Notes under the pieces: model-generated
Told to the model about the DNA's origin: nothing
The model's input: only the letters and a program-made list of their open reading frames with translations
Database searches by the model: none
Source: a virus
Lineage: Duplodnaviria > Caudoviricetes
IMG/VR virus record: IMGVR_UViG_3300033508_000131
Location: 1 to 25,154 of that record
DNA length: 25,154 nucleotides
Direction: 5' to 3' (one strand)
Shown here: positions 344-25,154 of the stretch, piece after piece
Numbering within the stretch: the stretch's first letter is position 1
How the letters are laid out: every line of letters starts with the position of its first letter
Position numbers and translations under genes: made by a program

Positions 344-1152
344 TAGTAAAGCTCCTGTAATCTTTTAATAACATACTTTTTAAATGATATGAAGTCAAAG
401 AAGAGATCTCCGTATTCATGGAACATGGCCATGATACTTGTGTCTCTAGCTAGGATAACTTCATGGAAGTAATTGTTACTCTGACGAATTGCTTCATCTT
501 CTACCTTAGCCATGTACGCTTGTTCGAACAACTCACGTGGAAATGGGAAGTCCCAAGTAGTTCTAGCAATGTCTGTGCTAATAGTTAATAGGTAGTAACT
601 TCGGTTAGTCGAATCACGTAGAAATTCTGAGATCATACTTCTCTCTACCTCCTTAGGAGTCTCTGCTGTAGGCAAAGGTAAGAAGTCATTCTCAAAAACT
701 AATCGTAACTGTTCTGGCCCAATGTGTGTTATCAAACCTAAAAGAACAAGGAGCTTGTATCTATCAATATCCCTATCTTTAAGATCTGCATTCATCATTG
801 GGCAGAGTTCCTTTATAGCTAATGCAAAGGTATTCCTGTAGAGTTCTGCCATGTTAGTCCCAAATAGTCTTCGCTTGGATGAAGCGAGAGTTCGTAAAGT
901 TTTGAACTCATCTTTAATCCTAGACTCAAGATCGGCTTTCCTCAAATCCAACTTGCTCCTTTTGATCTGCTCTTCAAGGTCAGATACACGGGTGTCTATT
1001 CTAGCTTTCCAATGGAACACCCCTGCATCGAGGGATGTTCCTTTTGAGAAAAAGATTATAGCTAAAATAGGAAAGACCACGAAGAGAACACCGATAGCCA
1101 TCATAAATAACCAAGGGTGTGTTAATATTATCTTAGCTACTAAATCTGTCAT
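343..1152 (-). CDS. Hypothetical membrane protein (N-terminal TM helix followed by a coiled coil)
   Basis: 269 aa. Hydrophobic WLFMMAIGVLFVVFPILAIIFF is followed by heptad-like RVSDLEEQIKRSKLDLRKADLESRIKDE. Translationally coupled to the next gene. Function unknown. Confidence 0.7.
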   Translation of the reverse strand: MTDLVAKIILTHPWLFMMAIGVLFVVFPILAIIFFSKGTSLDAGVFHWKARIDTRVSDLEEQIKRSKLDLRKADLESRIKDEFKTLRTLASSKRRLFGTNMAELYRNTFALAIKELCPMMNADLKDRDIDRYKLLVLLGLITHIGPEQLRLVFENDFLPLPTAETPKEVERSMISEFLRDSTNRSYYLLTISTDIARTTWDFPFPRELFEQAYMAKVEDEAIRQSNNYFHEVILARDTSIMAMFHEYGDLFFDFISFKKYVIKRLQELY

Positions 1153-1176
1153 CCTTAATAATTCTCCAATTCTCGA

Positions 1177-1503
1177 TTATGGTTTAGGGTCGTAGTCACC
1201 ACTAAGTGACTTCTCGTATACAGCTTTAAGTGCAGTAAGAAGTTCTGCACCTGCCATTGTTTTAGTGACACCACCGAACTCATACATGAATGGTGATGTA
1301 ACGATGGACATAAGTGAAACAGTCTTACCAAGGTTAGTCAAATCAACAAAGCTCTCATCATCAAGTTGACCACGTGAGAAGAAGTCTACAAAACCTTCTC
1401 CTCTAGAAATCGAATCATCTTTACCACGAATGGTAATCTGTTCTGTGAAGAACCGGACAGGGACAGTTTTTTCAACTAGAATCTTTTCATCTCTCTTAAA
1501 CAT
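1177..1503 (-). CDS. Hypothetical protein, possibly tail-fibre associated
   Basis: 108 aa with an AGGAG SD, directly downstream of the tail fibre gene. Function suggested by position only. Confidence 0.6.
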   Translation of the reverse strand: MFKRDEKILVEKTVPVRFFTEQITIRGKDDSISRGEGFVDFFSRGQLDDESFVDLTNLGKTVSLMSIVTSPFMYEFGGVTKTMAGAELLTALKAVYEKSLSGDYDPKP

Positions 1504-1514
1504 AACACTCTCCT

Positions 1515-4500
1515 TTATTTAATTACTGCTACACTAAATGTATGGGCATCTACATAAACTGCAGACCCATGAATTGATACTTTAATAGTTACTGTTCCAC
1601 TAGCTGAAACATATCCGAATAATCTGATACTAACTGACGACCCAGCACTAATCATAGAATTAACAAAATTAACACTAGGTGTGACTACTACAGGATCATT
1701 TACGACTGCACCTGTCAACCCTGTAACAGTGAAAGTTCTTGTATTACCATTCTCATAGTTACCTGCCGCGATATTAGAAGTGATTCCTTTAAGAGCAGAA
1801 GATCCACCTGAAAAAGTATTATCCCAATATTCTTTTGTAAGGATACAGTTAGTTCCCTGGTTAGCTGACCCTCCTGTAGTTGTGTTCTCATACCAAATTG
1901 AGAAGTTAGTAGTACCGGATGACCTGTTAAAAGTTAAGCTGACTTTGTTAAGAGTTCGGAAAAACAGATTAACATTAGAACTACCATTCATAATAACAGA
2001 ACCAGATACCACACTAGTAGTTATCGAACAGAAGAATTTTAACACAACAAAGGACGAAGCGTCAAAAACAATAGTAGTTCCTTCTGTCAAAGAGATAGGG
2101 TTACCGATGATATTAATCTGTCTACTCACTGAGGAGTTTATCGTTATCGTTCCGGCAGGAATTGAAAGAGATTCAATGAAGATGAATTGGATATCTACAT
2201 TGTTTAAAGCTAATTCAAATTCTGCAAAGGTTTTTACCACGGAGAGTCTATGGGACGAATACCCACTCAAGTGATTAGACAAGAGCGAAGCGGCTACCCC
2301 AACGTTTTCTTTACCTGTGTCACTCGGGTGGATATGGTCACCCCTCGCAAACTCCGCTGTCTCACTACCAATAGTTTGAGTTCCATTCATTCTAGGTAAT
2401 GTCCCAGTAGCCTTAGCGTGACCATAGTTCATAGAACTAGATATTCCGTATGTACCAGCAGAACTAGAATGGTTCGTAGGTGCTCTCCCTGTGTCAACAG
2501 GGTGAACATGGTCTTGAGACGAGAACCGTTCTGAAGCACCTTGAGAGGCTGTCCCATTCATTACAGGGTTTGAATTAGAGCACTTAGCCGAGACCATAAC
2601 ATCATACTCAGAAGCATTATAGCGGTAGACTTTAAATGTCCCTGTAAGAACGTCATTAAACTGCACTACATTCGTATGATCATGGACGATAATAGTTTTC
2701 TTTATAGGAGACCCTGTTATATGAAAATCTACAAAGCCATTAATAGGGAAGTCAGTCGGCATCTTAATAGTTAAGGTAGCGTCTGTTGCGGTAAGTTCGA
2801 TGACCCCACCTGCTGACCCTTTTGATACCCAAACTGTTGCACCCGAATCTTGAAACGTACCTGTCATTACCCCAGAGTCAGAAAGTGTTAGAGCTTTCTC
2901 TAAAGTCACCAAGTCTTTTGGTTCAGATATATCATTAATATCACACAGAGGTAATGACATAGAACCATCAGAGTTGAACTCCATTGCAAACTCATTTTTA
3001 TGGCTAACACGTTTCTCTTCATAACTTGTGTTGCCCCCTACGTTGTAACCCAATCTAGTTTTGAGAACCTCATCAACGTACAATGTCCCTTCAACCACAA
3101 GGGAGTCAACGATTCCACTCCCAACACCTATTCCGATATTACAAACAATGTCAGAGCCTGTCTCAGAACCATACTTAGTGTAATACCCGAATGGGCTGGT
3201 CAAACCACCTGCACCATACGCAATTGAATTTCCCCAAGGAGTAACATCTTTACTTGATGTGACTAACCAAAACCAACCTTCACGAATTAAGAAGAGACTC
3301 CCTCTTGTGTAATAGGGGAAAGTTCCGTAACTACTCCCTGCATCACGAGTACCCGCCTCAGTCCATGATCCATTAGCAGATGTGTTGGTGACAAAACCAG
3401 AGAATGTTGGAGCCTTTCCGGTAGTCACAGGTTTTCTAACTTGCCACAGGCCGGAGTGAGCCAACTGTAATAGCCCCGAATCAACCCCACCAATGTTAGT
3501 CAAGCCAAGATCTTTACCATCATTCCCAACAAGAAGAACTTGTTCAAGATCTTGACCCTCAGTCGCTTCAGACTGTTTACTACAATAGGTGATGTTGTTA
3601 CTTGTCTTGTAAGTAAGTCTTACCACACCATCCTTCGCGTAGATAGTGTCAATACCAACAAGTGTAGAGTTAGTCACAACAAAATTGATAGACCCAGTGC
3701 CTGTACACAGGAAGTCCATCCACTGTCCATTAGTCCAACCGGACATATTGACAGTGATTGTTGATAGTGCAGTATTCCGGATTACAAATTTACCTGTATC
3801 TGCTGAAGTAAAAGTAACTGTGTTACTAGCTAGAGTAGAATCATTATACTTCGCTAAGTCAAGCACAACTATTCCGGTCTGACCATTTACAGATAGGACT
3901 GTATCACTCGGAGATAGGAGTTCTTGCCAATTAGCAAGAGTAGAAGCTCCATCAACTCGAAGAATAAAAGACTTAGTTAAGTCAGTACGTATAGCTACAT
4001 CTCCACGTTGTGCAGTCAAAGCTAACATACTCACTTGGCTATTGACTACAAATGTGTCAGTAATTGATAATTCTGGAACTTGATCCGGAGTAAGTTTTCC
4101 ACCTGTGAGAGTGGCTACACCATTTGGAGCACCTTTCTCAGAGATAGAAATTTTACCATCAAGTAAATCTTGAATGTTTCCGGTGATTCCGGAAAGAGCA
4201 GTCAGTTCAGTAAGAGTGATAAGACTAGCTGTGATCCCATTCTCAGTGGTTATGACAACTCGATCCGTATCACCGACAGCTATCTGCTGTGAACGGATTT
4301 CATTTAACATACCACGGAGGTCTGTTGAGGTAAACCCTTGGAGAGCTTGTTTACCTATTTTAAGTATAGGCCCACCATCTTCACCGATACCCTCCTCAAC
4401 AGTTATCTTCTCTGTTAGTGTTAATGACTTAAATTTCTCATCAGCAAACTCAGTCTCACCATTCTTGATGATTCGACTAACCGCAGAAACAACGTGGTAA

Positions 4501-4649
4501 AGGTCTACTCCATTAGAAGTAGACCCGTGAACCATATTGTCATTCGGCATAGATGGGTCAGCAAAAATGATCCCACGGTGTTTGTTTCGTAACTTGCTCA
4601 CCAATGTGGCAAGAGAACCTTGGAAGAAAAAGATCTGCTTTTCGCTCAT
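1515..4649 (-). CDS. Tail fibre / receptor-binding protein
   Basis: 1044 aa, G/S/T-rich and mosaic. Contains fibre-type motifs KGAPNGVATL, SVNGQTGIV and two MNGT...DHxHPxDTG repeats. Follows the hub gene with a 4-bp overlap and a GGAGG SD. Confidence 0.8.
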   Translation of the reverse strand: MSEKQIFFFQGSLATLVSKLRNKHRGIIFADPSMPNDNMVHGSTSNGVDLYHVVSAVSRIIKNGETEFADEKFKSLTLTEKITVEEGIGEDGGPILKIGKQALQGFTSTDLRGMLNEIRSQQIAVGDTDRVVITTENGITASLITLTELTALSGITGNIQDLLDGKISISEKGAPNGVATLTGGKLTPDQVPELSITDTFVVNSQVSMLALTAQRGDVAIRTDLTKSFILRVDGASTLANWQELLSPSDTVLSVNGQTGIVVLDLAKYNDSTLASNTVTFTSADTGKFVIRNTALSTITVNMSGWTNGQWMDFLCTGTGSINFVVTNSTLVGIDTIYAKDGVVRLTYKTSNNITYCSKQSEATEGQDLEQVLLVGNDGKDLGLTNIGGVDSGLLQLAHSGLWQVRKPVTTGKAPTFSGFVTNTSANGSWTEAGTRDAGSSYGTFPYYTRGSLFLIREGWFWLVTSSKDVTPWGNSIAYGAGGLTSPFGYYTKYGSETGSDIVCNIGIGVGSGIVDSLVVEGTLYVDEVLKTRLGYNVGGNTSYEEKRVSHKNEFAMEFNSDGSMSLPLCDINDISEPKDLVTLEKALTLSDSGVMTGTFQDSGATVWVSKGSAGGVIELTATDATLTIKMPTDFPINGFVDFHITGSPIKKTIIVHDHTNVVQFNDVLTGTFKVYRYNASEYDVMVSAKCSNSNPVMNGTASQGASERFSSQDHVHPVDTGRAPTNHSSSAGTYGISSSMNYGHAKATGTLPRMNGTQTIGSETAEFARGDHIHPSDTGKENVGVAASLLSNHLSGYSSHRLSVVKTFAEFELALNNVDIQFIFIESLSIPAGTITINSSVSRQINIIGNPISLTEGTTIVFDASSFVVLKFFCSITTSVVSGSVIMNGSSNVNLFFRTLNKVSLTFNRSSGTTNFSIWYENTTTGGSANQGTNCILTKEYWDNTFSGGSSALKGITSNIAAGNYENGNTRTFTVTGLTGAVVNDPVVVTPSVNFVNSMISAGSSVSIRLFGYVSASGTVTIKVSIHGSAVYVDAHTFSVAVIK
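2305..2580 (-). repeat. Intragenic peptide repeat in the tail fibre (two DHxHP units)
   Basis: NPVMNGTASQGASERFSSQDHVHPVDTGR versus LPRMNGTQTIGSETAEFARGDHIHPSDTGK. Boundaries approximate. Confidence 0.75.
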
Positions 4650-7600
4650 GGTAATACCTCCTGTATCATTTCACTTGTATCAGTATCTTCATAATAGATA
4701 GAAGTTTCACTTGGGTAAGGAACTTCTTGGATTACATCAGTGATGCTATCAATGTCAAATTCGAACACGTTCACTTTGGTTACAAAACCTTGTGACTGTT
4801 CGCCAAGAACTATGTATAAGCTACCTGTAGTCCCTGGCAATAAAGAACTATTTATCTTTACCCACTCACCAATTTTGAAATCTAAATCAATAGTGTTGAA
4901 GGAAAGAAAACGTCCAGGGACTGCATGGAACAGCATATTAAGTTCACCAACCTTAAGAGCAGTAGAATAATCTGACACAGTGTCCAACTTCATTCTGTAT
5001 TCTTTCTTCTTATCAGCTAGATAAGATTTAGAAAGGATAAAAGGTCGTTGGTCTGGGAAGCTGTCAGAAGGGATCTTTCCATACTCAGTTCCTTCATCAA
5101 TATCATAATAGATATCTAGTGAAGAGACCAAGTAACCCAACGGTAGGAACTCTTCATCATAATCAAACCCAACTGACCCATCTCTAATGAACAGGTTAGT
5201 CGAATCAATAACCTTAGTAACAGTAGATTCTTCCGGTGGAGTCAAATCAATGATCTCGATAAGACCTTCTTTATTTTCATAAAGGATGAGTCCGGCCTCC
5301 TTAAGAACTTTACTTGCGGCCGACATAGCTGACACTGTAGACGTTGTAACATACGAATGTTTCCAGCCATCACGCTTAAGAGCTGTGTCTATCCAATTCT
5401 GAGTCACAAAATATTCCGGTTTAAAACCACCTTCTCTCGTTAGAATTGAGTACGCTAAAGTTACAGGGTTGGCAGGGTCTGTCATACCTTTCTTAAACCA
5501 AATCTTTAACCAAATAGAATCATCAACTGATAAGTAGAATTCATCTGTTTGAACTAGACCGTCACGGTCTACAAGATTGATTGTTACCGGAGCTACTCCA
5601 CCGGAAAGAACATCAATAAGTGAACCATCATACGGGTAGAATCTACCTTCTGATAGTAATCCAATGTTTCCTTGTCGGTCTTTAACAATGATCTGATTAT
5701 CGTCAGTTCCTAATACCGTTGTACCTGTAATGTTCCAACCAAGATTACCACCTTGATATGATACAGTGTGTGCCCACCAAAATCCTGTAGTCTGTTTGGC
5801 AAGAACCAACACCTTCTGATCTGACAGTAAGGATAACTTCTTAGGGAGATTAGCAGGCCCTACTATAACACCATCGTCCGGAGTCACTTGATCTCTATAC
5901 GGAAGTAAGTCGTCCACCTCAGCATAGAAATCATTTCCTTCAATTGACAGCTCAACGATGAAATTGAGATTACAATTACTATGGCTGAATGTAAAGAACT
6001 CTCTTGAGAAATCTTTCTTGGTAAGAACCTCATAAGATAAACTAAAAGATAAATCTTTCCAATTTGCTAGAGTTACAGGTTGTCCTTGTTCGGGAGTACT
6101 ATTCCACAATCCCCAAGATACTTGGCCTTGTGCAATCTCTTGTACTTTATTTATCTGTAACACACGAGACAGCTCATAAATATTCTTATATGAGTTAGTC
6201 GAAACATCATGATTAGAAATTCTCGAACCGTACACACCATCAACTGAACTAATTCTCACAGTGCTTATTGCTCTGTAATCCTCTACAGAAACTTCTTGAG
6301 TCTGTGACGAGAATGAACCGGAGAAGATTGGTTCACGTACTGTCCCATCTAGTGATGGGATATCAAAAAGGAGTGAAGATGCACCATACCCAACATAAGA
6401 ATCAGATTGTAAAAAGTCTAATCCGTACATAGAATAAGTTCTGACAGTTCCACTCCCCTCACGAATCTCTTTCATATTAGAAGTAAAGTTCTGAGTATCA
6501 ATTAGTGGACAGTCTAAAAGAAGATCCACATAATCTGCTGTACTATCTTGTGTATAGATAGAGATTTTAGTCCCTTGCAAGATACTAGACGGCAATGGGT
6601 TTGGCCCACTCTCAATAACTAAAGCTGTCACAAAGAACACTTCACCTGTATCAGAGACAGTCTGCTCATAAACAATTTTGTTTACAGTGTACGTCCCATC
6701 TAGCATTCGGAATGTTACAATCTGTCTCTGAGTAGGAAGAGTCCTCATTATTGCACCTTGTGAAGTCATATAGTAAGGATTATTATTCTCTAACCATACT
6801 CCCATACTCTCACCGGAATAAAAGATTGGTGACACAGGGATACGTGGCCGTACAATAGGTAGAAAGGTTATCACATCAATTGAAGCTGTACCTTTTGACG
6901 CGTTCTCCCCTGTAGGGGAACCGGAAGGAGTCACAGATGTTAGTGACCCATTAGTAACAATATCCGATATTACCGATTCATAACAACCATACCCGTCAGT
7001 CTTGTAAAGAGCGTAACTTTTACCATAAACGTCAGTAGAGGAACTCTCTAAATAGTATCTAATAAATGTATTCTTAGACCAACTTAGACATTGTGGTGGT
7101 GAAGTGTTAAGTGAGTCCAACTCAAACTTAACAATGATTCTTGCTACATCTTGAACAAAGATAACACTACCACGTGCACTAGGTTTCATAACTGTTGAGT
7201 AAACTGTTACGTCATTAGGGGCTAAACTACTAAAGATAATTTCATCATCAATAATATTGAAGTTAGTCGAAACAGGTAAAAGAAGTGGCTTCTGATTAAC
7301 ACGGGTAAACTCGTCTCGTTTAGCCTTAACTAGAATACTCTTAATAGAATATTTAGTTGGGTTAAAGATAAGTCTAGTATTCCCAAAATCATCTTTGCGT
7401 TTCTCAAGTTTAATCATTGATGTTTTACCAAACATAATTGGTGACCCATCTACAGTCAGTTGAGCTTCATTCAGAGAGAACTTTCCTTTAACAGTAAACT
7501 CTACTCTTGAAGGATTTCCCGCCCCAGAATCTATCTGAGCTACCATCTTAAGTTTCTTTGTGTTAGTGTCCGGAAACACTTCCCAAAGTTTAATGGTACA

Positions 7601-7936
7601 ACCTATGAACAGTTTTAGGTCAATGAGTTTTCTAACTAACGCGAACTTAAAGTCCTTCAAATTAGTTATCCCACCGACACCATTTAACTCTGATTTATCT
7701 GAGCCAACCTTGACACGAGTTTGTGTTACGAAGTCAATCTCACTACTTGTCTCCTCCAAGTCTAGTAAGTACCCGTTAAGAATCTTAGTAGAGAATAGGT
7801 TAGTCGAAACAAGTGCCTTAGTTGAGAAGAGGTATCCATCTTCAGTATCTAAGGTAGGTTTATCCAAGATTGGTGGATTCAATTCCCAATTGTCACCCTC
7901 TTTAGGAAAGACCTCTATTACTTTTATTGCATTCAT
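4646..7936 (-). CDS. Putative baseplate hub / tail tip protein
   Basis: 1096 aa, beta-rich, between the Dit-like genes and the fibre. The C-terminal segment (ASKVLKEAGLILYENKEGLIEI...LDFKIGEWVKINS) resembles hub/tip architecture. Mainly synteny. Confidence 0.6.
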   Translation of the reverse strand: MNAIKVIEVFPKEGDNWELNPPILDKPTLDTEDGYLFSTKALVSTNLFSTKILNGYLLDLEETSSEIDFVTQTRVKVGSDKSELNGVGGITNLKDFKFALVRKLIDLKLFIGCTIKLWEVFPDTNTKKLKMVAQIDSGAGNPSRVEFTVKGKFSLNEAQLTVDGSPIMFGKTSMIKLEKRKDDFGNTRLIFNPTKYSIKSILVKAKRDEFTRVNQKPLLLPVSTNFNIIDDEIIFSSLAPNDVTVYSTVMKPSARGSVIFVQDVARIIVKFELDSLNTSPPQCLSWSKNTFIRYYLESSSTDVYGKSYALYKTDGYGCYESVISDIVTNGSLTSVTPSGSPTGENASKGTASIDVITFLPIVRPRIPVSPIFYSGESMGVWLENNNPYYMTSQGAIMRTLPTQRQIVTFRMLDGTYTVNKIVYEQTVSDTGEVFFVTALVIESGPNPLPSSILQGTKISIYTQDSTADYVDLLLDCPLIDTQNFTSNMKEIREGSGTVRTYSMYGLDFLQSDSYVGYGASSLLFDIPSLDGTVREPIFSGSFSSQTQEVSVEDYRAISTVRISSVDGVYGSRISNHDVSTNSYKNIYELSRVLQINKVQEIAQGQVSWGLWNSTPEQGQPVTLANWKDLSFSLSYEVLTKKDFSREFFTFSHSNCNLNFIVELSIEGNDFYAEVDDLLPYRDQVTPDDGVIVGPANLPKKLSLLSDQKVLVLAKQTTGFWWAHTVSYQGGNLGWNITGTTVLGTDDNQIIVKDRQGNIGLLSEGRFYPYDGSLIDVLSGGVAPVTINLVDRDGLVQTDEFYLSVDDSIWLKIWFKKGMTDPANPVTLAYSILTREGGFKPEYFVTQNWIDTALKRDGWKHSYVTTSTVSAMSAASKVLKEAGLILYENKEGLIEIIDLTPPEESTVTKVIDSTNLFIRDGSVGFDYDEEFLPLGYLVSSLDIYYDIDEGTEYGKIPSDSFPDQRPFILSKSYLADKKKEYRMKLDTVSDYSTALKVGELNMLFHAVPGRFLSFNTIDLDFKIGEWVKINSSLLPGTTGSLYIVLGEQSQGFVTKVNVFEFDIDSITDVIQEVPYPSETSIYYEDTDTSEMIQEVLP

Positions 7937-7939
7937 CTT

Positions 7940-9214
7940 TTATCCTACTCTTAGAAATTCATAAGGAATCTGAATGTCATAGACGCCTGGTTCTTTGTAA
8001 CGGAACATAATTGTGTCTGACTCAACTGTAAGTGAGCAACCTAATACAACAGGATTCTTCTCAAAACCATGCCCGAAGTTTACCATATCAGAAGAGACAC
8101 AATCATTACCTGTCAATGACAAAGTAAATGGAACTTCACTTAAGTGTAACACTTCAGAGACAAACTTTCTGAACCCTTCTGCAATATCCTTAGGTACTGA
8201 AAGAATCAGTATAGAGTTACGACAGATGGTGAACGCACTACGTTCTTCACACGCGAAAGTCCCATCGAGACTCTCAGAGTCATACTGATTAAATCTGAAA
8301 TCACTTGGTTCTACACTGTACGTTAAGGTAGATGAACCGGATATCAATGGTATTAGGTATGTCCCTTTATTGTTCTCAGCTTTTAAGGTTATATTTGTAA
8401 GACTCTGAAGTGGGTCAGCAGTTACATAGATAACTATATAGTCACTGTATGCTACTTCTCCCGCAGAAGTTACTTTCCACAGAAAGTTCTTGCCGGAGTC
8501 TTCTAAATTAGATGTATATTCATAAACAGGGTTAGTCGAAACAAGCACACCATCTTTAAACAACTCATAAGAATAGGTTGTTGCTGTACTTCCTAGAACT
8601 ACCTTTGTAAAGAAAGTGTCTGGGAAAACATCTTCAGACTCTGACATTAAAACAACTTGGACACTTATAGTTCCAAATGGTAAGTTGATTGTGTTTGTTC
8701 TTTTCTTCCACAACTTTGTGTTTTCATTTAACTCAACACGGTCTCTGAAGTCATACCCATCTCTCGTAGGATTATACCAACCTAAGACAATACTCTCACT
8801 GATAGTTTGGTTAGTCGAATCAAGGTACACAAGTTTCACTGCACCTACGTCAGTGTTGTCATACGCTAATGACCCTTGCCACACACTTAAGATAACTTGG
8901 TTCGTCCCACTTGGTAGTGAGATAGTTTGTGCTAAAAGCCCATAGTCATTAGGGCCTTTGTTTGAAGAGTATGGTTCCGGAGTATATGCAAAATTAGTAT
9001 TTTCGGGGCCTATTACTGCCACTGATCTCCATGAGTTATCGAGATCAAGTTTCACCCAAGGAGTTACATCTTGTGTAACTGCGATGGGAGTTCCCTTAAC
9101 TACAATATCAGTTGTCAGACTTGGTGTCCCACCTACAGCAGTTACAGATAATGTAGTGACCTGCCCTTCAGTAGAAACAACACTTAACGGATTAGGGATT
9201 ACGCTTATTGCCAT
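7940..9214 (-). CDS. Tail protein: Ig-like domain, inserted beta-sandwich (CBM-like), C-terminal Dit-like domain
   Basis: 424 aa. Ig-like strands (VTTLSVTAVGG...YSYELFKDG...EDSGKNFLWKVTS) flank a ~180 aa insert. The C-terminus resembles the adjacent 136-aa protein. Confidence 0.6.
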   Translation of the reverse strand: MAISVIPNPLSVVSTEGQVTTLSVTAVGGTPSLTTDIVVKGTPIAVTQDVTPWVKLDLDNSWRSVAVIGPENTNFAYTPEPYSSNKGPNDYGLLAQTISLPSGTNQVILSVWQGSLAYDNTDVGAVKLVYLDSTNQTISESIVLGWYNPTRDGYDFRDRVELNENTKLWKKRTNTINLPFGTISVQVVLMSESEDVFPDTFFTKVVLGSTATTYSYELFKDGVLVSTNPVYEYTSNLEDSGKNFLWKVTSAGEVAYSDYIVIYVTADPLQSLTNITLKAENNKGTYLIPLISGSSTLTYSVEPSDFRFNQYDSESLDGTFACEERSAFTICRNSILILSVPKDIAEGFRKFVSEVLHLSEVPFTLSLTGNDCVSSDMVNFGHGFEKNPVVLGCSLTVESDTIMFRYKEPGVYDIQIPYEFLRVG

Positions 9215-9227
9215 TAGTACCTATCCT

Positions 9228-9638
9228 TTAATTAGTGTACATAAAAGAAAATTGCACATCATACAGGCCTGGAGGTTTTGGTTTCACCATACCTGTAGAA
9301 TCTTTGACAGTCAATCGGCACTTATTTACAGGAGCACCTGTCCCCCTACCTAAGTCTTCAGAACTCACAGTCACTGTAAATTCTTTCAACATAAACTGTA
9401 TCTTTTGAACTATGAATATGTAGAGCTTTTGGTAGTCATCTCTACTTAGGTTAGTCAATTCAAGTAGAACCACACTTCTAACTACTCGTGAACTGAAAAC
9501 TTTCTTTACCCCAACACCTGTATACCCTTTTTGATAGTCTCTCAATGCAGACTCAAGTTTCAGATTATACGACAAAGAGACCCCCGATAACTCGAGGGTC
9601 TCTGAGGTTGAAGGTATAGCAATTGTTAATACTGCCAC
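9228..9638 (-). CDS. Putative distal tail (Dit/gpM-like) protein
   Basis: 136 aa, GTG start overlapping the end of the tape measure gene. Size and position are typical of Dit. Confidence 0.55.
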   Translation of the reverse strand: MAVLTIAIPSTSETLELSGVSLSYNLKLESALRDYQKGYTGVGVKKVFSSRVVRSVVLLELTNLSRDDYQKLYIFIVQKIQFMLKEFTVTVSSEDLGRGTGAPVNKCRLTVKDSTGMVKPKPPGLYDVQFSFMYTN

Positions 9639-13717: not shown

Positions 13718-13747
13718 AATAAATCTCCAAGTTAGGCATTATTTAGA

Positions 13748-13795: not shown

Positions 13796-13810
13796 GGTTA
13801 GTCGAATAAA

Positions 13811-15208: not shown

Positions 15209-15223
15209 CTTGTCTCCTTCGCA

Positions 15224-15718: not shown

Positions 15719-15720
15719 CT

Positions 15721-16398: not shown

Positions 16399-16422
16399 AG
16401 CCACTCCTTTTTATACTAGAAT

Positions 16423-16449: not shown

Positions 16450-16473
16450 TGTCTTGTTTATTCGACTAACCGA

Positions 16474-17460: not shown

Positions 17461-17487
17461 AGTTGATCCTTTCTCCTCTACTGAGGA

Positions 17488-17510
17488 AGCCACTAAATTT
17501 ATTAGTGGCT
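17488..17510. promoter_or_regulatory. Perfect 9-bp hairpin in the leader of the capsid gene
   Basis: AGCCACTAA-attta-TTAGTGGCT, with no U-tract. Confidence 0.6.
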
Positions 17511-17529
17511 AGTGGGTTAGTCGAATAAA

Positions 17530-17910
17530 TTAAATCTTTTTCTGAGCAGGGATAGTCTGTCCGGCAACACCGGCTGACATTGCTACGAGTGACGCAACAT
17601 TCGTCGCATCTTTTACTGCTTTACCTGCGGCATCAGAACCGAGGCGGTCACCTTTTGCAACTGTACCTGCAAGAGTTACCCAATATTCTTTATTAGGTTC
17701 AAATGCTTCAACTGCAACTTTGCGTGAAGTTTCGGGGCCGAAAGAATTACCGACAGTTACCATGTTGTAAGTCAAGTTAGCACCTACAGTGATAGCTTCA
17801 GTAGTCTGATTGTAGGTAACAAGAGTTCCTACGGTCATTGGTTCAGTTCCGATTGCGAGAACGGTTACAGGGCCTTTAGCCTGCAAAGCACGCTGTTTTG
17901 TAATAGCCAT
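17530..17910 (-). CDS. Head decoration / capsid cement protein (DUF2190-like)
   Basis: 126 aa, A/G/T/V-rich, with GTVAKGDRLGSDAAGKAV...AMSAGVAGQTIP. Directly upstream of the capsid gene and carries the same GAGGAGAAAGGA SD. Confidence 0.8.
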   Translation of the reverse strand: MAITKQRALQAKGPVTVLAIGTEPMTVGTLVTYNQTTEAITVGANLTYNMVTVGNSFGPETSRKVAVEAFEPNKEYWVTLAGTVAKGDRLGSDAAGKAVKDATNVASLVAMSAGVAGQTIPAQKKI

Positions 17911-17940
17911 GTTGACTATCCTTTCTCCTCGATATGAGGT

Positions 17941-18465
17941 TTATTTTTTCCCGAAGAGGGAAGGGTACATTGATCTTGCCTGGATTGTAGCGTCACGTTG
18001 TGAGCAGTTAAGGCTGTTCTTGATTGACTGAATCGCTTCAGCTTGTGTTTTTGGAGCATCTTCGCTGTCTCCACCTGTACCAACCGAAGGGTTGTTAGCA
18101 GATGGGTTAAGGAAAGCTTCTTGATTAGATTCAACCTTAGTTTCTGTTTCAGCGTCAACTTTGCCATCAACCATAGCTTCGAGAGTAGTAAAGTAGTCAC
18201 CGTTGTTAGCTTCGAAAAGTTTACTAACGTCACCTTTGTACTCGATTTTGGTTGCTTTTTCTTGCAGTTTAGCAAGGTTTTCATAGTTAGCGATAATCCC
18301 GTTAGCTTCAGTAAGCTGATCTTTGACGTTAGTCAAATCAGCTTGTATAGCTTGGAAGGTCGCCATCTCTACAGTCGCGACTGCAGGGATATCTGATACG
18401 GTGGTAGCTACAGGGTCAACGGTTTTTGTTGCCTGTTCTTCGAGATTTTTTCTCTTGAAAAGCAT
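17941..18465 (-). CDS. Putative capsid scaffolding protein
   Basis: 174 aa, acidic and coiled-coil, with a short C-terminal helical domain ending YPSLF. TAATG-coupled to the protease. Confidence 0.65.
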   Translation of the reverse strand: MLFKRKNLEEQATKTVDPVATTVSDIPAVATVEMATFQAIQADLTNVKDQLTEANGIIANYENLAKLQEKATKIEYKGDVSKLFEANNGDYFTTLEAMVDGKVDAETETKVESNQEAFLNPSANNPSVGTGGDSEDAPKTQAEAIQSIKNSLNCSQRDATIQARSMYPSLFGKK

Positions 18466-19310
18466 TAGCTCTCCTTTGCTTTGGTTATAAGTTCTGTTAA
18501 AGTCATAACTCCATCCACTAAGAATGAAGGAGCGTTACTTCCGGTAAAGAAATCAGCCTCAGTCCCAACGATAAGACTTGCATCTACATCTCGGTACTTA
18601 GCTACTGCGCTAGTGAAATTTACATAAGTCTCACTAACCATAGATTGAATACGTTCTTCCTCTTCAGCACTCATAGGAAGGTTAGGGTGACCGAATGCTT
18701 TCTTTCCACCTGCACGATAGATAGTTGTTTTCTGTGTCTGGTTAGTCGAATCAACAGCCTTAGTAACTGTAGCATACACACCAATACTTCCAACAATCGC
18801 ACTCTGTGAACAGATCACTGAGCTTGCCGCAGAGCCTGCCCAATAAGCCGCACTTGCCATTTGAGTATCTGTAAAGGAAATTACTTCAACACCTTTAGCT
18901 CGTAAGCTAAAGATTGCTTCTGCAAGTTCCGGAGTACCCATAGTTGCACCACCCCCGGAATCCCAATGCAGGATTAAAGCGTCAGCCTCACAACCTTGGA
19001 TAATCTCTGCAAGACGTATTGTAGGAATCATTCCACAGTACGGTCGCATAGACCCTGTTCGTGGAACGAGCGTTCCCGAGATTTTCATGTAGTCATATGA
19101 ACGTCCCGACTTGGATACAAAATAGTCAGTCTCCCAAGCGGACGATACAGATTCACCAAACTTAGTGCTCTGTTCCATTGCCACAAGTGCTTGGTATGCG
19201 TCAGTGTTATTGATTTTACCATCAAATACAGAGAGCATAGTTTCAAGACCATTGTGAGTCATTGCCCAAGGGGTATTATTCACAAATGAAATCAAATTAC
19301 CAATTGCCAT
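18465..19310 (-). CDS. Prohead protease, peptidase S49 family (lambda gpC-like)
   Basis: Motifs LHWDSGGG, MASAAYWAGS, VGSIGVY and AGGKKA. Confidence 0.93.
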   Translation of the reverse strand: MAIGNLISFVNNTPWAMTHNGLETMLSVFDGKINNTDAYQALVAMEQSTKFGESVSSAWETDYFVSKSGRSYDYMKISGTLVPRTGSMRPYCGMIPTIRLAEIIQGCEADALILHWDSGGGATMGTPELAEAIFSLRAKGVEVISFTDTQMASAAYWAGSAASSVICSQSAIVGSIGVYATVTKAVDSTNQTQKTTIYRAGGKKAFGHPNLPMSAEEEERIQSMVSETYVNFTSAVAKYRDVDASLIVGTEADFFTGSNAPSFLVDGVMTLTELITKAKES

Positions 19311-20868
19311 CGTCCTTTCTCCTTTCCTTTTTTGTATCCTCGTCTACTTCACCATTTTTATCTACTTTTTCGCCCTTACGAGTTCCCCCTTGTCTGTCCT
19401 GCTTAGCGTTGGCCTGGACAGTCTCCGGAAATTCGATTCCGTATTTAGCTTCAAGTTCTTTTCTCTTAACAAGGACAAGCGCATCCTCTTCGACTTTATC
19501 CAACGCTTCATCAATACGCTCACTGCGCGTTGAATCATAGTCTGTTCCTCTACGGTCGTGAATGTCATGGATTGAAGTTGTCTCATTTGTGAGTTCAGTC
19601 TTTTCACCACGGGCATCCTTCTCTGGATCTAGGATTGAAGATCTAGGAGCTTTAATATACAAGTCAATATCGTCGGGCTTAATATTTGTATCACCCATCA
19701 TGTAGTATTCAAATAGGACACTTGAAACGACTAACCGAGCGACCTTAGTTGCCCAAATGTCCCAACCGATAAGACTCCGTTCCATTTTAAGTTGTCCACC
19801 TTTCCATGAGGAATAGTTTACATCTTTCAAATCTTGGTGGAGAATCTCATATGGAATCTGCATCGGCATACCTGTCAGTCTGAGGATACGTTTAATAAAC
19901 ATATCATCACCTTCTGAAGCAGGTCTAGGTATGAACGGTTGCAGAGTCTCGCCTGGTTTTAATGAAGCGATCATCCCTGGGGCTAACATCCCACGAACAT
20001 TCATATCATTCTGATTTCTACCCGAGACTAGAAGATTATCGGCAGTCTCATTTGAGTTAGTCGATTGAATGAAACCTGCGATTCCACCACTTGTCCGTTT
20101 ATTGATAAGTGTGGTATTAAGGTAATCTTCAAAGTATCTGTGCAAAGGAGTTGCACTTGTCAAAGGAGGTATTCCACGTGTTTGGTCTGCCGGACAGAAC
20201 TTTCCATTCTTAACCAAGAGAGCCACACGTCTCACTACCTTTTCACCATCAACATCTGCTTCTCTGAAGAAAGGCAGATACACAAAATCTTCATCTCGTT
20301 CAGATCGTGTTGTGTATATACGGTTAGCATCTTGTAACTTACGAACAAATGCACCAACAGCAATACCATCTACCGTTTTAATTCCCTCAATTACTGATGG
20401 GTCTTTACGGTAAGCAGGTGGGTTCTTGATACGTCCACCATCAATCACTTCGACATAAGTCTTAAGACCTTTTTCTACTTTTGGATTGAGAGTAATGTTT
20501 ACAAGACAGTCACCTTTCTCAAATGACATTCCTGCCACTTGTCTCAGAATCTCTGGAAGAGAGATATCTCGTGATTTGTTCACTTGTGCTAAGTCTCTGT
20601 TTAGCTTACGAGCTAAGCCTTTATGTAGCTTGCGTCTGTACATCGGCTTAACAATTACTTGGTCGCCACATACATGATTTACTACAGCTTCACGACTTGA
20701 GTCAGCCATGAAATTGTTTCGAATCAACCAAGTAGAGAGCATTCTCAACTTAGTGATATTTTCTCGTTGACTTAAGAGTACGTCCGGATCTTTTTCAGTA
20801 GAAAACCACTGACCACGGAAGTAGTCAGTGTTCAACGCTTTAAAGTCCTCTTGTCCATAACTAGACAT
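19297..20868 (-). CDS. Portal protein, lambda gpB family
   Basis: Motifs QTRGIP, LKPGE, IPYEILHQDLKDVNYSS and ILDPEKD. The GAGGAGG SD supports the ATG at 20868 rather than the ORF-track start at 20952. Confidence 0.93.
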   Translation of the reverse strand: MSSYGQEDFKALNTDYFRGQWFSTEKDPDVLLSQRENITKLRMLSTWLIRNNFMADSSREAVVNHVCGDQVIVKPMYRRKLHKGLARKLNRDLAQVNKSRDISLPEILRQVAGMSFEKGDCLVNITLNPKVEKGLKTYVEVIDGGRIKNPPAYRKDPSVIEGIKTVDGIAVGAFVRKLQDANRIYTTRSERDEDFVYLPFFREADVDGEKVVRRVALLVKNGKFCPADQTRGIPPLTSATPLHRYFEDYLNTTLINKRTSGGIAGFIQSTNSNETADNLLVSGRNQNDMNVRGMLAPGMIASLKPGETLQPFIPRPASEGDDMFIKRILRLTGMPMQIPYEILHQDLKDVNYSSWKGGQLKMERSLIGWDIWATKVARLVVSSVLFEYYMMGDTNIKPDDIDLYIKAPRSSILDPEKDARGEKTELTNETTSIHDIHDRRGTDYDSTRSERIDEALDKVEEDALVLVKRKELEAKYGIEFPETVQANAKQDRQGGTRKGEKVDKNGEVDEDTKKERRKDDGNW

Positions 20869-21106
20869 TGTAACCTCCTCCAAAAGAAACAAATCTTGCG
20901 CCACCATTGTGACCAAGATCTCCCGCTTCTTCTTCCCGAACTTTTTCGTCAAGGTATTTTGAGAAGGCTATAACATCTCCTAGTTGCCGGAAGGTCGTTT
21001 GTAAGTCATTCGCACCTTTTGACTCTTCTACGAGCCACCGATCAACACGTTGTTCAACGAGGGCTTTTAGAAAGTTTGTTCTGATAGTAGACCAAGTTCC
21101 TGCCAT
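20861..21106 (-). CDS. Head-tail joining protein (gpW-like)
   Basis: 81 aa between terL and portal, as in lambda gene order A-W-B. GAGGTG SD. Confidence 0.65.
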   Translation of the reverse strand: MAGTWSTIRTNFLKALVEQRVDRWLVEESKGANDLQTTFRQLGDVIAFSKYLDEKVREEEAGDLGHNGGARFVSFGGGYNV

Positions 21107-21123
21107 TGAGCACCTCTCTTTGT

Positions 21124-23109
21124 TTATAAATAGGTTGTTGTATAACCGTAGTTAGATGATCCAGTTCCTGCACGTTGTTGCGGTTGAGAGAAAGGAGTTG
21201 TATTAACTTCCTCAACCTCTTTAGTCTTCTTGTTTCGACTAACCACATCACCTTCATATTCTGCAACAATCTGACATGGGTTATACTTCCAATCAGGAAC
21301 CTCAAGCATATTACGCATTGTAGATGTACCGAAAGGAATATCAAGAGCAATAAAGTTGTGGATTTCAGCCATACGATAGTCAGTTTGACCACCATTTTCT
21401 TTAATCCAAACAGTCTTATTCTCTCCTGTTTTTTTGTTCTGTTCTTTTACTTTCTTCGCTGTAACAAACTGATTAAAGTAATCGTCTTCTACCCCATGGA
21501 ATAAAGTCCAATACTCTTTAAGACATTCATTCTCAGTCATTTCTAGGTAGTCATATGTCTTAGCAAACCATAATCCAGGAATGTTACTTGAAGGGACTAA
21601 CGGGACAGCCTGTTGTGTATTTCTACCTTTAACACGGATAGCCTTACTAAGGTATGAGACAATGTTTTTCATCTCAACTTCTCGGTGACCTGCTGTATCA
21701 AATGCCCAACGTCCAATTTTCCACTTAGTTCCAAACTCACTTGTGAAAATTCGTTCCTCTACATTGTCTTTAATTACCTGTGCAAACTCTTTTATAGAGA
21801 CTGACTCTATCTGAGCAGGTAAAAACATTGTATCAGTCAAGTGAGTTCTACGACCGGAACCATGACAACGGAAAGTTATGTATAATCCGTTGTCTTGGGT
21901 ATCTGCTCCGGCGGTTATTACTTTTGTCCATTCCGGAATTACTCCTCTCGGCAAGTCAATCACTCTGTCTCGGAGAGATTCTAGTGCCACTTTACTTTCA
22001 GACAGTCTAAAGAATCTAGCAAGCCAACACTGAATGAAATTTTTCATGTCGTGAAACTTACCTTTAACTTCAATAAACTTTCGTGCTATCCGCACAAACG
22101 ATCTGAAAGGACTAACCATAGAAGTAATCCAAAAATAGTTATGGGTTTGAACAAAGTCTTCCCAATTAGGAAAGTCCTCAATTGTTACACCATCATAACC
22201 TGCCGGAGCGTATGCTCCTATTGCGTTCCATTCACGTTTTTTATTGTCATCCGGAAACGCGTGTTCTTTACAATATTTACAAATACATTTGGCATCTAAC
22301 CCGTCCTTATCAGACCATTTAAGATTCTCAAAGAAGTCAAGAATCTGAAACTTACCACAGAGAGGGCAGGCATTATACCAAAAGAAAACCGTTGTGAAAG
22401 GTTTGTCAAGCTGTTGATGCAACAAATCCCCTTCAACTGAAGGGGTACTTGCTACATACATTTGACCACTACCTTCTTCAAGGTATGTTGTTAGTCGGTC
22501 TCTTAACAACTCGATTACGTTTGATTCCTCACCGATGGTTAGTGGAAACAACCGCAATTCGTCAATGATAACTCGTTTGGCGGGAGTAGAACTTAAAGTC
22601 CCCAACGATCCACCCCACCCAGGCTGTATACTCATCTCTTTAAATCTGAGCATACTCACGTTTAAGTTACGTGATTTTGGTTCAAGAACAGCATCATAGA
22701 GTTCTGGGGTACGCTCCACCATCCCTATGATTTTATCTTCGATAGCCTTACGTGCAGATTTCTCATCTGGAAAGGTATAGATAAGTGTCCCTGGGTCTTG
22801 ACAGATACTGTCTGCCACAACTGTTTGAAGATACGTTGACTTACCACCTTGTGTTGGGCCAAGTATACCAATCGTTTCTACGCCTCTTCGACCTGTTAGT
22901 TTCAGAGGAGCTTCGTGGTATGGGGTAAGTGTCAAGTCGATTCTGTCTACTACGTTCTTCGTAGGATTCAATCTGATTCGACTAACCATCTCACGAGCCG
23001 GAAATCTTTCCGGTATACGAAACAAAACCTTTTCACCTTTAGACAGGCGGAAAGGTTTAATATTTTTAAGTTCATTATCCAAATTGAATGAGGTGTCTAC
23101 TTGCTCCAT
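21124..23109 (-). CDS. terL: Terminase large subunit, GpA family
   Basis: Walker A GPTQGGKST, Walker B VIIDE, coupling motif ASTP, CPLC...CKYC zinc site and nuclease motif GADTQ. Confidence 0.96.
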   Translation of the reverse strand: MEQVDTSFNLDNELKNIKPFRLSKGEKVLFRIPERFPAREMVSRIRLNPTKNVVDRIDLTLTPYHEAPLKLTGRRGVETIGILGPTQGGKSTYLQTVVADSICQDPGTLIYTFPDEKSARKAIEDKIIGMVERTPELYDAVLEPKSRNLNVSMLRFKEMSIQPGWGGSLGTLSSTPAKRVIIDELRLFPLTIGEESNVIELLRDRLTTYLEEGSGQMYVASTPSVEGDLLHQQLDKPFTTVFFWYNACPLCGKFQILDFFENLKWSDKDGLDAKCICKYCKEHAFPDDNKKREWNAIGAYAPAGYDGVTIEDFPNWEDFVQTHNYFWITSMVSPFRSFVRIARKFIEVKGKFHDMKNFIQCWLARFFRLSESKVALESLRDRVIDLPRGVIPEWTKVITAGADTQDNGLYITFRCHGSGRRTHLTDTMFLPAQIESVSIKEFAQVIKDNVEERIFTSEFGTKWKIGRWAFDTAGHREVEMKNIVSYLSKAIRVKGRNTQQAVPLVPSSNIPGLWFAKTYDYLEMTENECLKEYWTLFHGVEDDYFNQFVTAKKVKEQNKKTGENKTVWIKENGGQTDYRMAEIHNFIALDIPFGTSTMRNMLEVPDWKYNPCQIVAEYEGDVVSRNKKTKEVEEVNTTPFSQPQQRAGTGSSNYGYTTTYL

Positions 23110-23768
23110 ACATCAAACTCCTTGTCGAAGTCTGCTAGTGGGTCAGCATTGAAATCATCAGCTTCAGCTTCCTCTGAGGAATCAACTAATGTGCGTTTAC
23201 TAACTTCGTTAGTCAAATCAACTTCCTTACGTGACTCTGAAATACGTGTAGCAAGCAAGCGAAGACTACCATCTTCTTCCCACTCTTTAACTTCTACAAC
23301 GTGCTCCTCGATACGTTCAAAAAGACTATTAAACAATTTGGTCAAAAGTTCTTCGTTCTGTCTGTTGTCTCCTGGAAATTGATTACTAGCCATTTTAATG
23401 AAGAGTTGTACCATCTGCTGATAACCGGATAACATCTCGATTACCCTTACCTTTGCAATGTCTTTCTCCATTAACTGACCAAGATCTTTTTGATTTTTGA
23501 TCTGTAAGTGAGTGAGTCTCTCGTGCTCCTGCAATCCTTTGATAGATGCTAAATCTGTGTCAGCACCTGCACCCTTAAGAGCTGTGCGTATGTTTGTGAA
23601 TTGCTTGTGGAATGCACAGAGTGTAGCCAACAGAGGGATACCACCACTTGTTGGAATGCCTACTTGGTCAAGGTCACGCTTTTGGATTCGTGTGAGTGCT
23701 TCAAAGCGACCTTTAGTCATATATGTTTCATCGTCACCAAAGAAGTTGGTTTCAAACTGTTCGGACAT
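23097..23768 (-). CDS. terS: Putative terminase small subunit (Nu1-like)
   Basis: 223 aa overlapping the terL start. Helical ERLTHLQIKNQKDLGQL segment as in Nu1-type proteins. GAGG SD. Confidence 0.7.
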   Translation of the reverse strand: MSEQFETNFFGDDETYMTKGRFEALTRIQKRDLDQVGIPTSGGIPLLATLCAFHKQFTNIRTALKGAGADTDLASIKGLQEHERLTHLQIKNQKDLGQLMEKDIAKVRVIEMLSGYQQMVQLFIKMASNQFPGDNRQNEELLTKLFNSLFERIEEHVVEVKEWEEDGSLRLLATRISESRKEVDLTNEVSKRTLVDSSEEAEADDFNADPLADFDKEFDVWSK

Positions 23769-23811
23769 TTTTCAACCTCAATGGTTAAGTTTATTCGACT
23801 AACTAATTGGA

Positions 23812-23916
23812 AAATGCCCAACAGATTCTTAGTTCCTACTGCTCACTGAGTTCCTGGAGATGAAGGCAACCATAGCTGAGTTATTGCAGTAGAAACTAAG
23901 GATCTGTTGGGCACTT
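23812..23916. repeat. Long inverted repeat (28-31 bp arms, 43-nt loop)
   Basis: TGCCCAACAGATTCTTAGTTCCTACTGC (23815-23842) pairs with GCAGTAGAAACTAAGGATCTGTTGGGCA (23886-23913), with 2 mismatches. Confidence 0.92.
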
Positions 23917-24024
23917 AGAGAGAAGACGAAATGCCCTAAACTTCTGCTCTCATATCTATATGAACAGGCTCGTAGCCTATCTTATTTATTCGACTAACCG
24001 TCTTGTGTTAGGACGTGCTAGCCA

Positions 24025-24068
24025 AACCTTAGCAAGTTGGACTCGTGAGAGACTTTCCTGCTAAGGTT
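24025..24068 (+). other. Stem-loop capped by a GNRA tetraloop
   Basis: 10-bp stem AACCTTAGCA/TGCTAAGGTT enclosing CTC-GTGA-GAG. Confidence 0.6.
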
Positions 24069-24314
24069 CTTGCAATTGTTTATTCGACTAACCGTATTTA
24101 TTCGACTAACCAAAAGAGACTAACTAAGTTAGTCGCTAATGGTTAGTCTCTGAAGTACAGTCCTTCGACTAACCAATTTTATTCAGGACGCGGTTTCCGT
24201 GCTAGCGTTCATTTTTAGCACGTTATCGACTAACTCGACTAACCACCTCAATTAGGGCATATTGAGACATTGAAAAGATATATCATGCCAAAAGGAAAAG
24301 CAAGAAAAACAATG

Positions 24315-24402
24315 AAAATAGTTGATTAATTGGCATTAATTTCGTAAGGAGTTGATTTTGAGTGTCCGATTATTAAGATTAATTTGATCTAAGTCATTGA
24401 TT
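24315..24402 (-). promoter_or_regulatory. IHF consensus sites (WATCAANNNNTTR)
   Basis: Exact matches AATCAACTCCTTA (24345-24357) and AATCAATGACTTA (24390-24402). One-mismatch copy AATCAACTATTTT (24315-24327). All on the minus strand. Confidence 0.6.
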
Positions 24403-24421
24403 TTGCTAGAGTTAGCTATCC

Positions 24422-24481
24422 TTATTTATATATATATTTAATTTAATTTAATATTAATAATAATAATAATAATAAATATAA
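24422..24481. other. 60-bp pure A/T tract including (TAA)7
   Basis: No G or C from 24422 to 24481. (TAA)7 lies at 24455-24475. Confidence 0.9.
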
Positions 24482-24713
24482 CTATAGTATTCTATGTAAA
24501 AATTAAGTCGGTTAGTCGAGTTAGTCGATTTTTTGTCAGATCGCTCTGCTCCGGTAAGGGACGGGCACGAAAGGCTATTTAAAGCAACAGAGAGACGCTA
24601 CAATGACCTTAAAACTATATTAGAGTAACATTATAGGCCTAAATGGTTAAAGGGCCTTAAAACGTCTCCCTGTGAAGGTTAGTCGAGAAGGAACTTATTA
24701 ACTATTGACCTGT

Positions 24714-24730
24714 AGCAATTGCCATGCCAA
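24714..24730 (-). promoter_or_regulatory. Sigma-54 (-24/-12) promoter consensus, copy 1
   Basis: Minus strand TTGGCATGGCAATTGCT matches YTGGCAYGRNNNTTGCW with exact GG-N10-GC spacing. Confidence 0.7.
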
Positions 24731-24780
24731 TCTCTAAATTAATCGTGACTTAATGAGCAGTTAATTAAATTATGGGCATA

Positions 24781-24797
24781 AGCAATTGTCATGCCAA
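24781..24797 (-). promoter_or_regulatory. Sigma-54 (-24/-12) promoter consensus, copy 2
   Basis: Minus strand TTGGCATGACAATTGCT, 67 bp from copy 1. Confidence 0.7.
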
Positions 24798-24814
24798 CCT
24801 TCTTTCGACTAACA

Positions 24815-24918
24815 CGACTAACCAATTTAATTAACTCAAAATTAATTGGCAGTTAATTAACTTCGAGTTTCGCGACTAACCAATTTAATTAACTCTGACT
24901 TAATTAGCAGTTAATTAA
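24815..24918. repeat. Direct repeat of a 46-bp unit with 58-bp period
   Basis: CGACTAACCAATTTAATTAACTC-N4-TTAATT(G/A)GCAGTTAATTAA at 24815-24860 and 24873-24918. A partial third copy lies at ~24736-24768. Confidence 0.9.
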
Positions 24919-25154
24919 AATTGAAAACAGATTCTTACAATCTTAGTTAGTCGAATCCCTGCACCGGAAGCGACTAACCATTAATTTAGACATGAATTTA
25001 CATGAAATATAAGCATATTCAGAACTGAATTGACCTCAGAATTATGGTATTTAACATGGTTAGTCGAATAAAGAAGATTAGTTGGTTGTCGCTAAGGTTT
25101 TGTTGGGCATCACCACTAAAAAATTCGGGTGGTTACTGTGCGAGAAAAAGCCAC

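Follow-up and report, generated by a model that had tools for sequence, protein, structure and literature searches.

A lineage-private DNA word evenly spaced along one arm of a tailed phage, with a ParB/Noc-like protein as its candidate reader

The DNA analysed here, called the window throughout, is a viral stretch of 25,154 nt (IMG/VR record IMGVR_UViG_3300033508_000131, Caudoviricetes), and all positions are counted over the whole stretch. It represents the left arm of a tailed phage, with every gene on the minus strand: a tail module (343..16404, with the tape measure at 9626-13063 and a fibre-like gene at 1515-4649), a lambda-type head module (16474..23109; gpA-like large terminase, portal, S49 protease, scaffold and major capsid protein) and the gene of a Nu1-like small terminase subunit (TerS, 23097..23768) with an N-terminal winged-helix-like domain. 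Beyond TerS lies a non-coding end region (23769..25154). The record is the whole assembly; it breaks at position 1, and the early arm of the phage lies outside the window. A contig from sequencing run X1 continues 1.1 kb beyond position 1. Our subject is a short DNA word, TCGACTAAC/GTTAGTCGA, which is written through the whole arm, genes included.

The word is the commonest 9-mer of the window, the next unrelated 9-mers being far rarer. Its 36 exact copies (21 on the minus strand, 15 on the plus) comprise 13 in the 1.39 kb of the non-coding end and 23 in the gene region, where they form a lattice on both strands from 604 to 22986; 16 of these 23 read on the coding strand and 7 in reverse, and 20 lie inside coding sequences (CDSs). 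A first-pass annotation, made from the letters alone, had claimed the totals of 36, 23 and 20 and the 16:7 division, and our recount returned the same figures, while its seven perfect 15-mers and six near-matches were found within 1-2 bases of where it had placed them. When synonymous codons were shuffled within genes (n = 2000) the CDSs held a mean of 0.50 copies and a maximum of 5 against the 20 observed, and shuffling codon order gave a mean of 0.11; the enrichment therefore stays under the codon-preserving shuffle which that annotation had recommended, and its claim that selection acts on the nucleic acid is borne out. The invariant core of the word is GACTAAC, with 57 copies in the window, 38 in the gene region and 35 in CDSs (3.7 expected). 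Variants of the 9-mer with a single change within this core have at most one copy each, and the C of TC in the word tolerates T (6 such copies). Only four reading frames of the word are free of stops and, as had been noticed, all four are used: the word encodes every STN tripeptide (9/9), 5 of 9 xRLT, 4 of 6 VSR and 2 of 7 xLV[DE] peptides. Moreover, peptide places permitting the word are themselves enriched (31 vs 11.1 expected), and therefore selection altered amino acids, not codons alone; the word is realised at 14 of the 18 sense and 6 of the 13 antisense opportunities in CDSs. A peptide repeat or a codon-bias artefact is ruled out by the shuffles and by the counts of word-permitting peptides. 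The fibre-like gene has 1 exact site in 3.1 kb. Rfam gave no structured-RNA match in the window.

The cores of the gene region (n = 38) are evenly spaced, with a coefficient of variation (CV) of the gaps of 0.58 (P 1e-4), no two cores closer than 174 bp, and the lowest CV among 101 frequent 7-mers; the check for spacing more regular than Poisson, suggested in the first-pass annotation, thus came out positive for the cores. Sliding the sites of one strand against those of the other raises the CV (P 0.021), and the CV of single strands is not below that of label shuffles in any of 7 tests (P 0.83 for the window cores, 0.47 for the relative G004 described below). The regularity is a joint property of both strands, in the window cores as in G004. 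The even-spacing rule lapses in non-coding DNA, where the end region holds 19 cores (about 1 per 73 bp), some of them in tandem and with inverted copies. All three roomy intergenic gaps (3/3) hold a perfect 15-mer just past a stop codon: at 13796..13810 (minus strand) right behind the tail-tube-like gene and before a hairpin with a T run, at 16457..16471 (plus strand, reversed) 2 bases past the capsid gene and before a terminator-like hairpin, and at 17515..17529 (minus strand) right behind a 126-aa head gene and again before a hairpin.

Searches with TerS and the large terminase (TerL) gave 21 related loci, which make up 17 lineages after near-identical pairs were merged and are cited here by L and G numbers. 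L001, whose TerL is 75% identical to that of the window (206 of 480 fourfold third positions identical), has 8 exact copies of the window word in 7.7 kb vs 0.29 expected; 2 of them fall on an exact site of the window and 1 on a near-match. The word is retained between the two phages while its positions turn over, so that of the proposed conservation in orthologues the word itself held and the sites mostly did not (2/8 exact). In a 40,964-bp contig of the L001 lineage, a tail protein has 5 STN/RLT/VSR tripeptides vs 0.93 expected (P 0.002), and a 33%-identical homologue of it has 1 vs 0.74 expected.

Among the relatives, the window's own word was found in L001 only, and many others carry a word of their own, which in 10 of the 17 lineages reaches the strength of the top 4% in a background of 111 unrelated viral loci. 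Related dialects include TGGGTTAC, TGGGTCAG, CTGGGTCG and TGGATYAC. By lineage, TGGGTTAC is used in L319, L329, L330 and L331, TGGATYAC in G001, TGGGTCA[CG] in L322, L333, L335 and L338, TTGGGTC in L334, CTGGGTCG in G004, TTAAGTTAG in L341 and a weak GGTCTAC in G003 and L339. The dialects follow the TerL tree and do not cross between genomes: the word is lineage-private. In 12 of 13 tested relatives, L341 being the exception, the count is above the highest of 100 synonymous shuffles, most of the words having been picked from the same sequence that the shuffle tested. G004 carries 69 sites in 47.8 kb, spread through its early as well as its late genes. Of these, 62 lie in CDSs (vs 2.5), with a spacing CV over all sites of 0.61, 3 gaps under 150 bp vs 13 expected and a strand-shift P of 0.003; its CDS sites divide 39:23 by orientation, which follows no single replichore. 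G004 is an independent replicate of the even spacing, in another dialect. That a lattice of private DNA words exists, strongly selected, family-wide and with dialects, is solid, whichever protein reads it. In L319 and L320 the dialect word forms a palindromic hairpin behind the capsid gene. G002 (L344-L354) is a 208-kb IMG/VR record of which the first 24 kb belong to this family, with the dialect confined there; it was considered as a prophage with host flanks and rejected, the genes beyond about 24 kb looking like those of another large virus, so that it serves as no test of the host, and the record is probably chimeric.

The physical genome probably ends on the left at position 25154, with a putative cos-like terminus at 25085..25154 (minus strand) where contig ends coincide: L050 and an X1 contig stop at the same base as the window, and run X2 within 10 bases. 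Of the 15 contig starts shown, those from 4 relative lineages lie no more than 5 bases from a common GGTTGTT[CG]GC-like sequence, to which the window end bears only a loose likeness. The first 20 bases of L319, L326, L341 and L343 have this sequence in common, a candidate conserved cos end of the family. Two inverted double sites (24225..24529; 29-nt arms, 90% complementary) flank an AT-rich core at about 24420-24500, which may be origin-like or nucleation-centre-like. At 24118-24134, in the densest cluster, the core of the word stands as a perfect inverted pair with a 3-base spacer. Directly upstream of the TerS gene, a 31-nt inverted repeat (23812-23842/23886-23916, 43 nt apart, 90% complementary) could form a leader hairpin and has no Rfam match. 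A second, TGCC(C)AAC-like word has 7 of its 14 window copies in the end region (23815, 23906, 24328, 24725, 24792, 24844 and 25102), similar words are present in the end of G004, and it is a better candidate than the main word for TerS sites. Between 24737 and 24919, 3 copies of an AT-rich 33-nt unit with TTAATTAA palindromes, 92 and 58 bases apart, adjoin copies of the word. The end region has 4 sigma-70-like sites vs 5.0 expected, and on these counts a promoter role of the word was rejected. In one clade (L319 at 912-3760, L328-L330 and L326), 3-5 extra structural-looking genes lie between the genome end and TerS, an interval which in the window is non-coding DNA only. The non-coding end of G004 (L363 reverse strand, ~630-740) has a degenerate GCTCTGT-type microsatellite and several CTAAC-type words, distinct from its genome-wide dialect. 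In runs X1 and X2, one-sided loose ends were seen at the word copies 21245 and 25078, consistent with a further word-bearing stretch outside the window, perhaps the missing arm. Two-sided loose ends in the sequencing runs had no likeness to CRISPR spacers.

Outside the family, a scan of GTDB with the 15-mer, covering 34 of 64 parts (~230 stretches estimated overall), returned 120 loci in 120 different genomes, 117 of them with one 9-mer and 3 with two, and no genome in this half was enriched for the 15-mer. A host carrying the word with these flanks at phage-like density would recur in such a scan; the scan would miss a short core without these flanks, or a host that GTDB lacks. Checked against host motifs, the word is not a motif of any genome met in the scan. 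Three motif scans found 0 viral loci outside the family with a comparable lattice of the window word, and those of IMG/VR (one covering 57 of 64 parts) no contig outside the family with this lattice; a metagenome scan yielded nothing beyond a second assembly of this phage, and a tail-protein scan came back empty. An unrelated viral locus, L035, carries a dispersed TCACTCTCCA word at 7 separate sites within 10 kb and may have a lattice of its own. Three runs from three microbial-mat studies contain no less than half of the words of this stretch, one run being possibly the source sample, and no RNA run was among the listed holders. No capsid relative was found in GTDB, TerL of isolated phages is only 21-25% identical among the 20 matches listed, and no host was obtained from an Atlas search or from the fibre matches, which were uninformative on it.

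Within the window TerS is the only candidate reader, and what else might read the word can be approached through the early regions of relatives (records 58-66% complete). All three relatives showing a PolA module (G001, G003 and G004) encode a ParB/Noc-like protein and an AEP primase-helicase, within a shared module that also has PolA, an SNF2-like helicase, a ligase, two nucleases and three unnamed genes. The ParB-like proteins (327-361 aa) have a ParB-like N-terminus and an HTH_ParB domain (for two of these proteins E 4e-6 and 6e-6), all three have PHROG ParB-like matches, and their best PDB matches, over the N-terminal and HTH regions, are Noc (E 3e-6) and Spo0J. Apart from it, G001, G003 and G004 have no HTH-type gene in common. 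G005 (63% complete) has an initiator and DnaB module, no ParB-like or primase match in its 33 kb, and no dispersed word. The consensus sites have dyad scores, read here without a null, of 0.43-0.48 in the window, the L319 clade and G001, and half-sites such as TGGGTCAC resemble the parS half TGTTTCAC (PMC7383237; papers are cited by PMC number). Near alignment columns 112-113, in the nucleotide-binding region, Noc and Spo0J read EN and each of the three ParB-like proteins reads GN, a difference which may alter CTP turnover.

The reading that we favour, at a probability of roughly 0.45, is that the words are loading sites of a phage ParB/Noc-like clamp. The phage would keep one short word at even intervals on both strands of its genome; a phage-encoded dsDNA-binding protein, most likely ParB/Noc-like, would load at each word and, presumably as a CTP clamp, spread a few hundred bases from each site, covering the whole genome. 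To judge from the relatives, the window's phage would carry the ParB-like gene in its missing early arm. The coat would preferably serve to organise replicating phage DNA and set it apart from host DNA; alternatively, it may tune transcription in the manner of KorB. The clamp is favoured because dsDNA loading with a spread of about 1 kb predicts orientation-blind even spacing, turnover of positions and partial two-fold symmetry, and regularity joint to both strands accords with a reader of double-stranded DNA whose reach is limited; for KorB, sliding of up to 1.5 kb is described (PMC11790492). Also in its favour are the ParB-like gene in all three PolA-type relatives, the missing word in G005 and the lineage-private dialects. 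Of the protein or guide first proposed, a sequence-specific protein remains the best inference, while a guide RNA found no support, with no Rfam match. We propose more tentatively that site and ParB/Noc-like reader diverge jointly into dialects, that selection for coverage rewrites virion proteins and that the coat is a self label against host or rival DNA.

Several observations weigh against the clamp. The ParB-like gene is absent from the window, which lacks the early arm, and in the relatives it comes together with the primase-helicase and eight further replication genes, so that co-occurrence cannot pick the reader. Of the DNA-contact residues common to ParB and Noc, the G004 protein, as we read its alignment with Noc, keeps G170 and S172 and has Q162, K171, N178 and R204 replaced, and what we take to be the GxxRxxA-type motif is intact in 2 of the 3 ParB-like proteins. 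In G003 the gene is present and the word only weak. The words are mostly asymmetric, with weak dyad scores in G004 and L334 (0.31-0.34, likewise without a null). For the exact 9-mer over the entire gene region the spacing is not significant (CV 0.73, P 0.07), becoming so without the fibre and lysis genes (CV 0.44, P below 1e-4), an exclusion chosen post hoc; nor are its strand-shift test in the window (P 0.23) and the spacing tests in G001 (P 0.29 and 0.19) significant. Seven of the 17 lineages miss the top 4%, L335 standing at 5% and six not above background. Finally, sites favour the coding strand in CDSs of L329 (9:0), L322 (8:0) and L335 (8:0), among the intergenic sites of L319 (4/4) and L320 (3/4), and on both arms of G001, flipping between the arms; stop-codon constraints explain this bias only in part.

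The nearest working models for the clamp would be Noc with its NBS sites or ParB with parS, and KorB with the OB sites of plasmid RK2. With the former the phage system has in common the best matches of the relatives' protein, many dispersed sites and some parS-like half-sites; it differs in that its sites are asymmetric or partly symmetric, stand at about 1 per kb and are mostly genic, and in that the DNA-contact residues differ (PMC7383237). Moreover, the phage has its own replication module, and partition in its classical form, one of the roles first suggested, lacks a ParA-family match among the early proteins scanned in the relatives (records 58-66% complete). KorB is likewise a ParB-family clamp of a mobile element, with dispersed sites and a reach of about 1 kb, yet the sites here are denser, turn over inside genes and come in lineage dialects, and a KorA-like partner was not identified (PMC11790492). 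If the clamp reading is right, the system would work like Noc-NBS or KorB-OB, while its evolution looks like that of the neisserial DNA uptake sequence (DUS).

The same early module offers another reader. The primase-helicase has NrS-1 polymerase chains as its only PDB matches (E 5e-11), 2 of 50,697 phage records match it, one of them NrS-1, and NrS-1 primes at TTTGGTTA, an 8-nt site having TGGTTA in common with the window's reverse strand, which often reads TGGTTAG (PMC8718748). Perhaps, then, the word is a priming or loading signal of the AEP primase-SF3 helicase at about Okazaki spacing, with the end cluster as origin; the coding-strand bias that flips between the arms of G001 and the AT-rich core between inverted double sites would suit such a role. 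We consider this unlikely, because priming predicts regularity per strand, which was not found, and priming sites on opposite strands cannot substitute for one another. The orientation in G004 fits no single replichore, the hhalign likeness to NrS-1 is limited to the helicase domain (columns 594-765) with the priming domains not aligned, and NrS-1 is described with just two such sites (PMC7102993). The AEP-TOTE match of the primase-helicase is weak (E 0.0011, below the cut-off). It is quite unlikely that the word is the operator of some other regulator from the missing arm, in a stoperator-like or silencing network. An asymmetric 9-15-bp site repeated more than 20 times does recall L5 and the cluster A mycobacteriophages (PMC9283540), and the perfect copies just past stop codons and the orientation bias of relatives agree with it; stoperators, however, are intergenic, standing in promoters and short spaces between genes, and oriented with transcription (PMC9283540), whereas here 20 of 23 operon sites lie in CDSs, both orientations (16:7) are selected, positions turn over, and the relatives' modules have no second HTH-type gene in common. 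We give a low probability to a private Chi-like self mark that halts or diverts a nuclease or helicase of the phage, whereby phage DNA is spared or recombination aided. Its attractions are the Cas4-like exonuclease and SNF2-like helicase of the shared module, the even spacing that minimising the longest unmarked stretch would yield, the dense cluster at the probable DNA end, and the precedent of lambdoid phages enriched for Chi, an asymmetric word, near one end (PMC12315714, PMC3784561). Chi, however, is a host word, polar (20:3 and 32:0, PMC12315714) and about 3-fold enriched (PMC12315714, PMC3784561), as against about 40-fold, even spacing and 21:15 over both strands here, and neither enzyme gives a sign of reading sequence.

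A word copied by the phage from an unsequenced host, as an uptake sequence or Chi, would account for much that resembles DUS, namely an asymmetric 9-12-mer at about 1 per kb on both strands, permissive coding positions, turnover, altered peptides, few copies in the fibre gene and the existence of dialects (PMC2397512). This is nonetheless very improbable: DUS, in hundreds to thousands of copies, mark the chromosome of a competent host and are reported absent from recently acquired genes (PMC2397512), whereas the window word was found in the phage lineage only, with at most 2 9-mers at each locus met in the 34 GTDB parts scanned and 0 comparable viral loci outside the family, and the dialects follow the phage tree. 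Least probable of all is a TerS binding site, that is, a cosB-like signal spread along the genome. The word is densest at the probable packaging end, the N-terminus of TerS is winged-helix-like, and lambda TerS binds repeats near cos (PMC4856287). The TerS family has 13 of 50 members matching phrog_57, and its predicted model (pLDDT 81.5) aligns weakly in VIA-align with the lambda-type TerS domain 6hn7_B (Z 5.2, rmsd 2.3, 61 aligned); Foldseek returned no TerS match, and among phage records neither TerS nor the ParB-like protein had a match. Among the 15 TerS compared, identity of the DNA-binding domain is 10-21% between L322, L335 and L338, whose dialects are nearly the same, and 75% between L326 and L331, whose dialects differ: the small terminase does not track the dialect. 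The first 1.5 kb of G004 contain just 3 exact sites, and the lambda cosB R elements are three TerS sites within about 200 bp at the end, as opposed to sites spanning 25 kb. To our knowledge, cos packaging has no need for internal sites. The window word departs from stoperators, Chi and cosB in the features just named, and we count it as a member of none of them. The early suggestion of self-marking has partial support, the word being absent as a motif from the scanned GTDB genomes and kept in a relative; of the purposes it named, silencing, condensation or protection may apply, and selection in packaging is disfavoured with TerS untied to dialect.

In the literature, with subscription journals mostly outside our coverage, we found neither this word described nor a lattice with dialects read by a phage ParB. 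A comparable dispersed phage repeat is the 17-bp repeat of cluster O mycobacteriophages, with 34 copies genome-wide, some of them genic, and no known reader; unlike the window word it is perfectly inverted, keeps its positions and lies mostly between genes or at their starts (PMC4351075). Phage ParB-like proteins are common and mostly described without a known target (PMC12704722). The family-wide nature of the word system and its dialects are not visible from the window alone. Where dispersed repeats of the cluster O kind lack a known reader, this family offers a candidate reader together with sites in several matched dialects, and swaps of protein and site can test both. If the proposed reading is true, phages would have one more means of organising or labelling the DNA that is theirs, and a set of orthogonal site-reader pairs would be gained.

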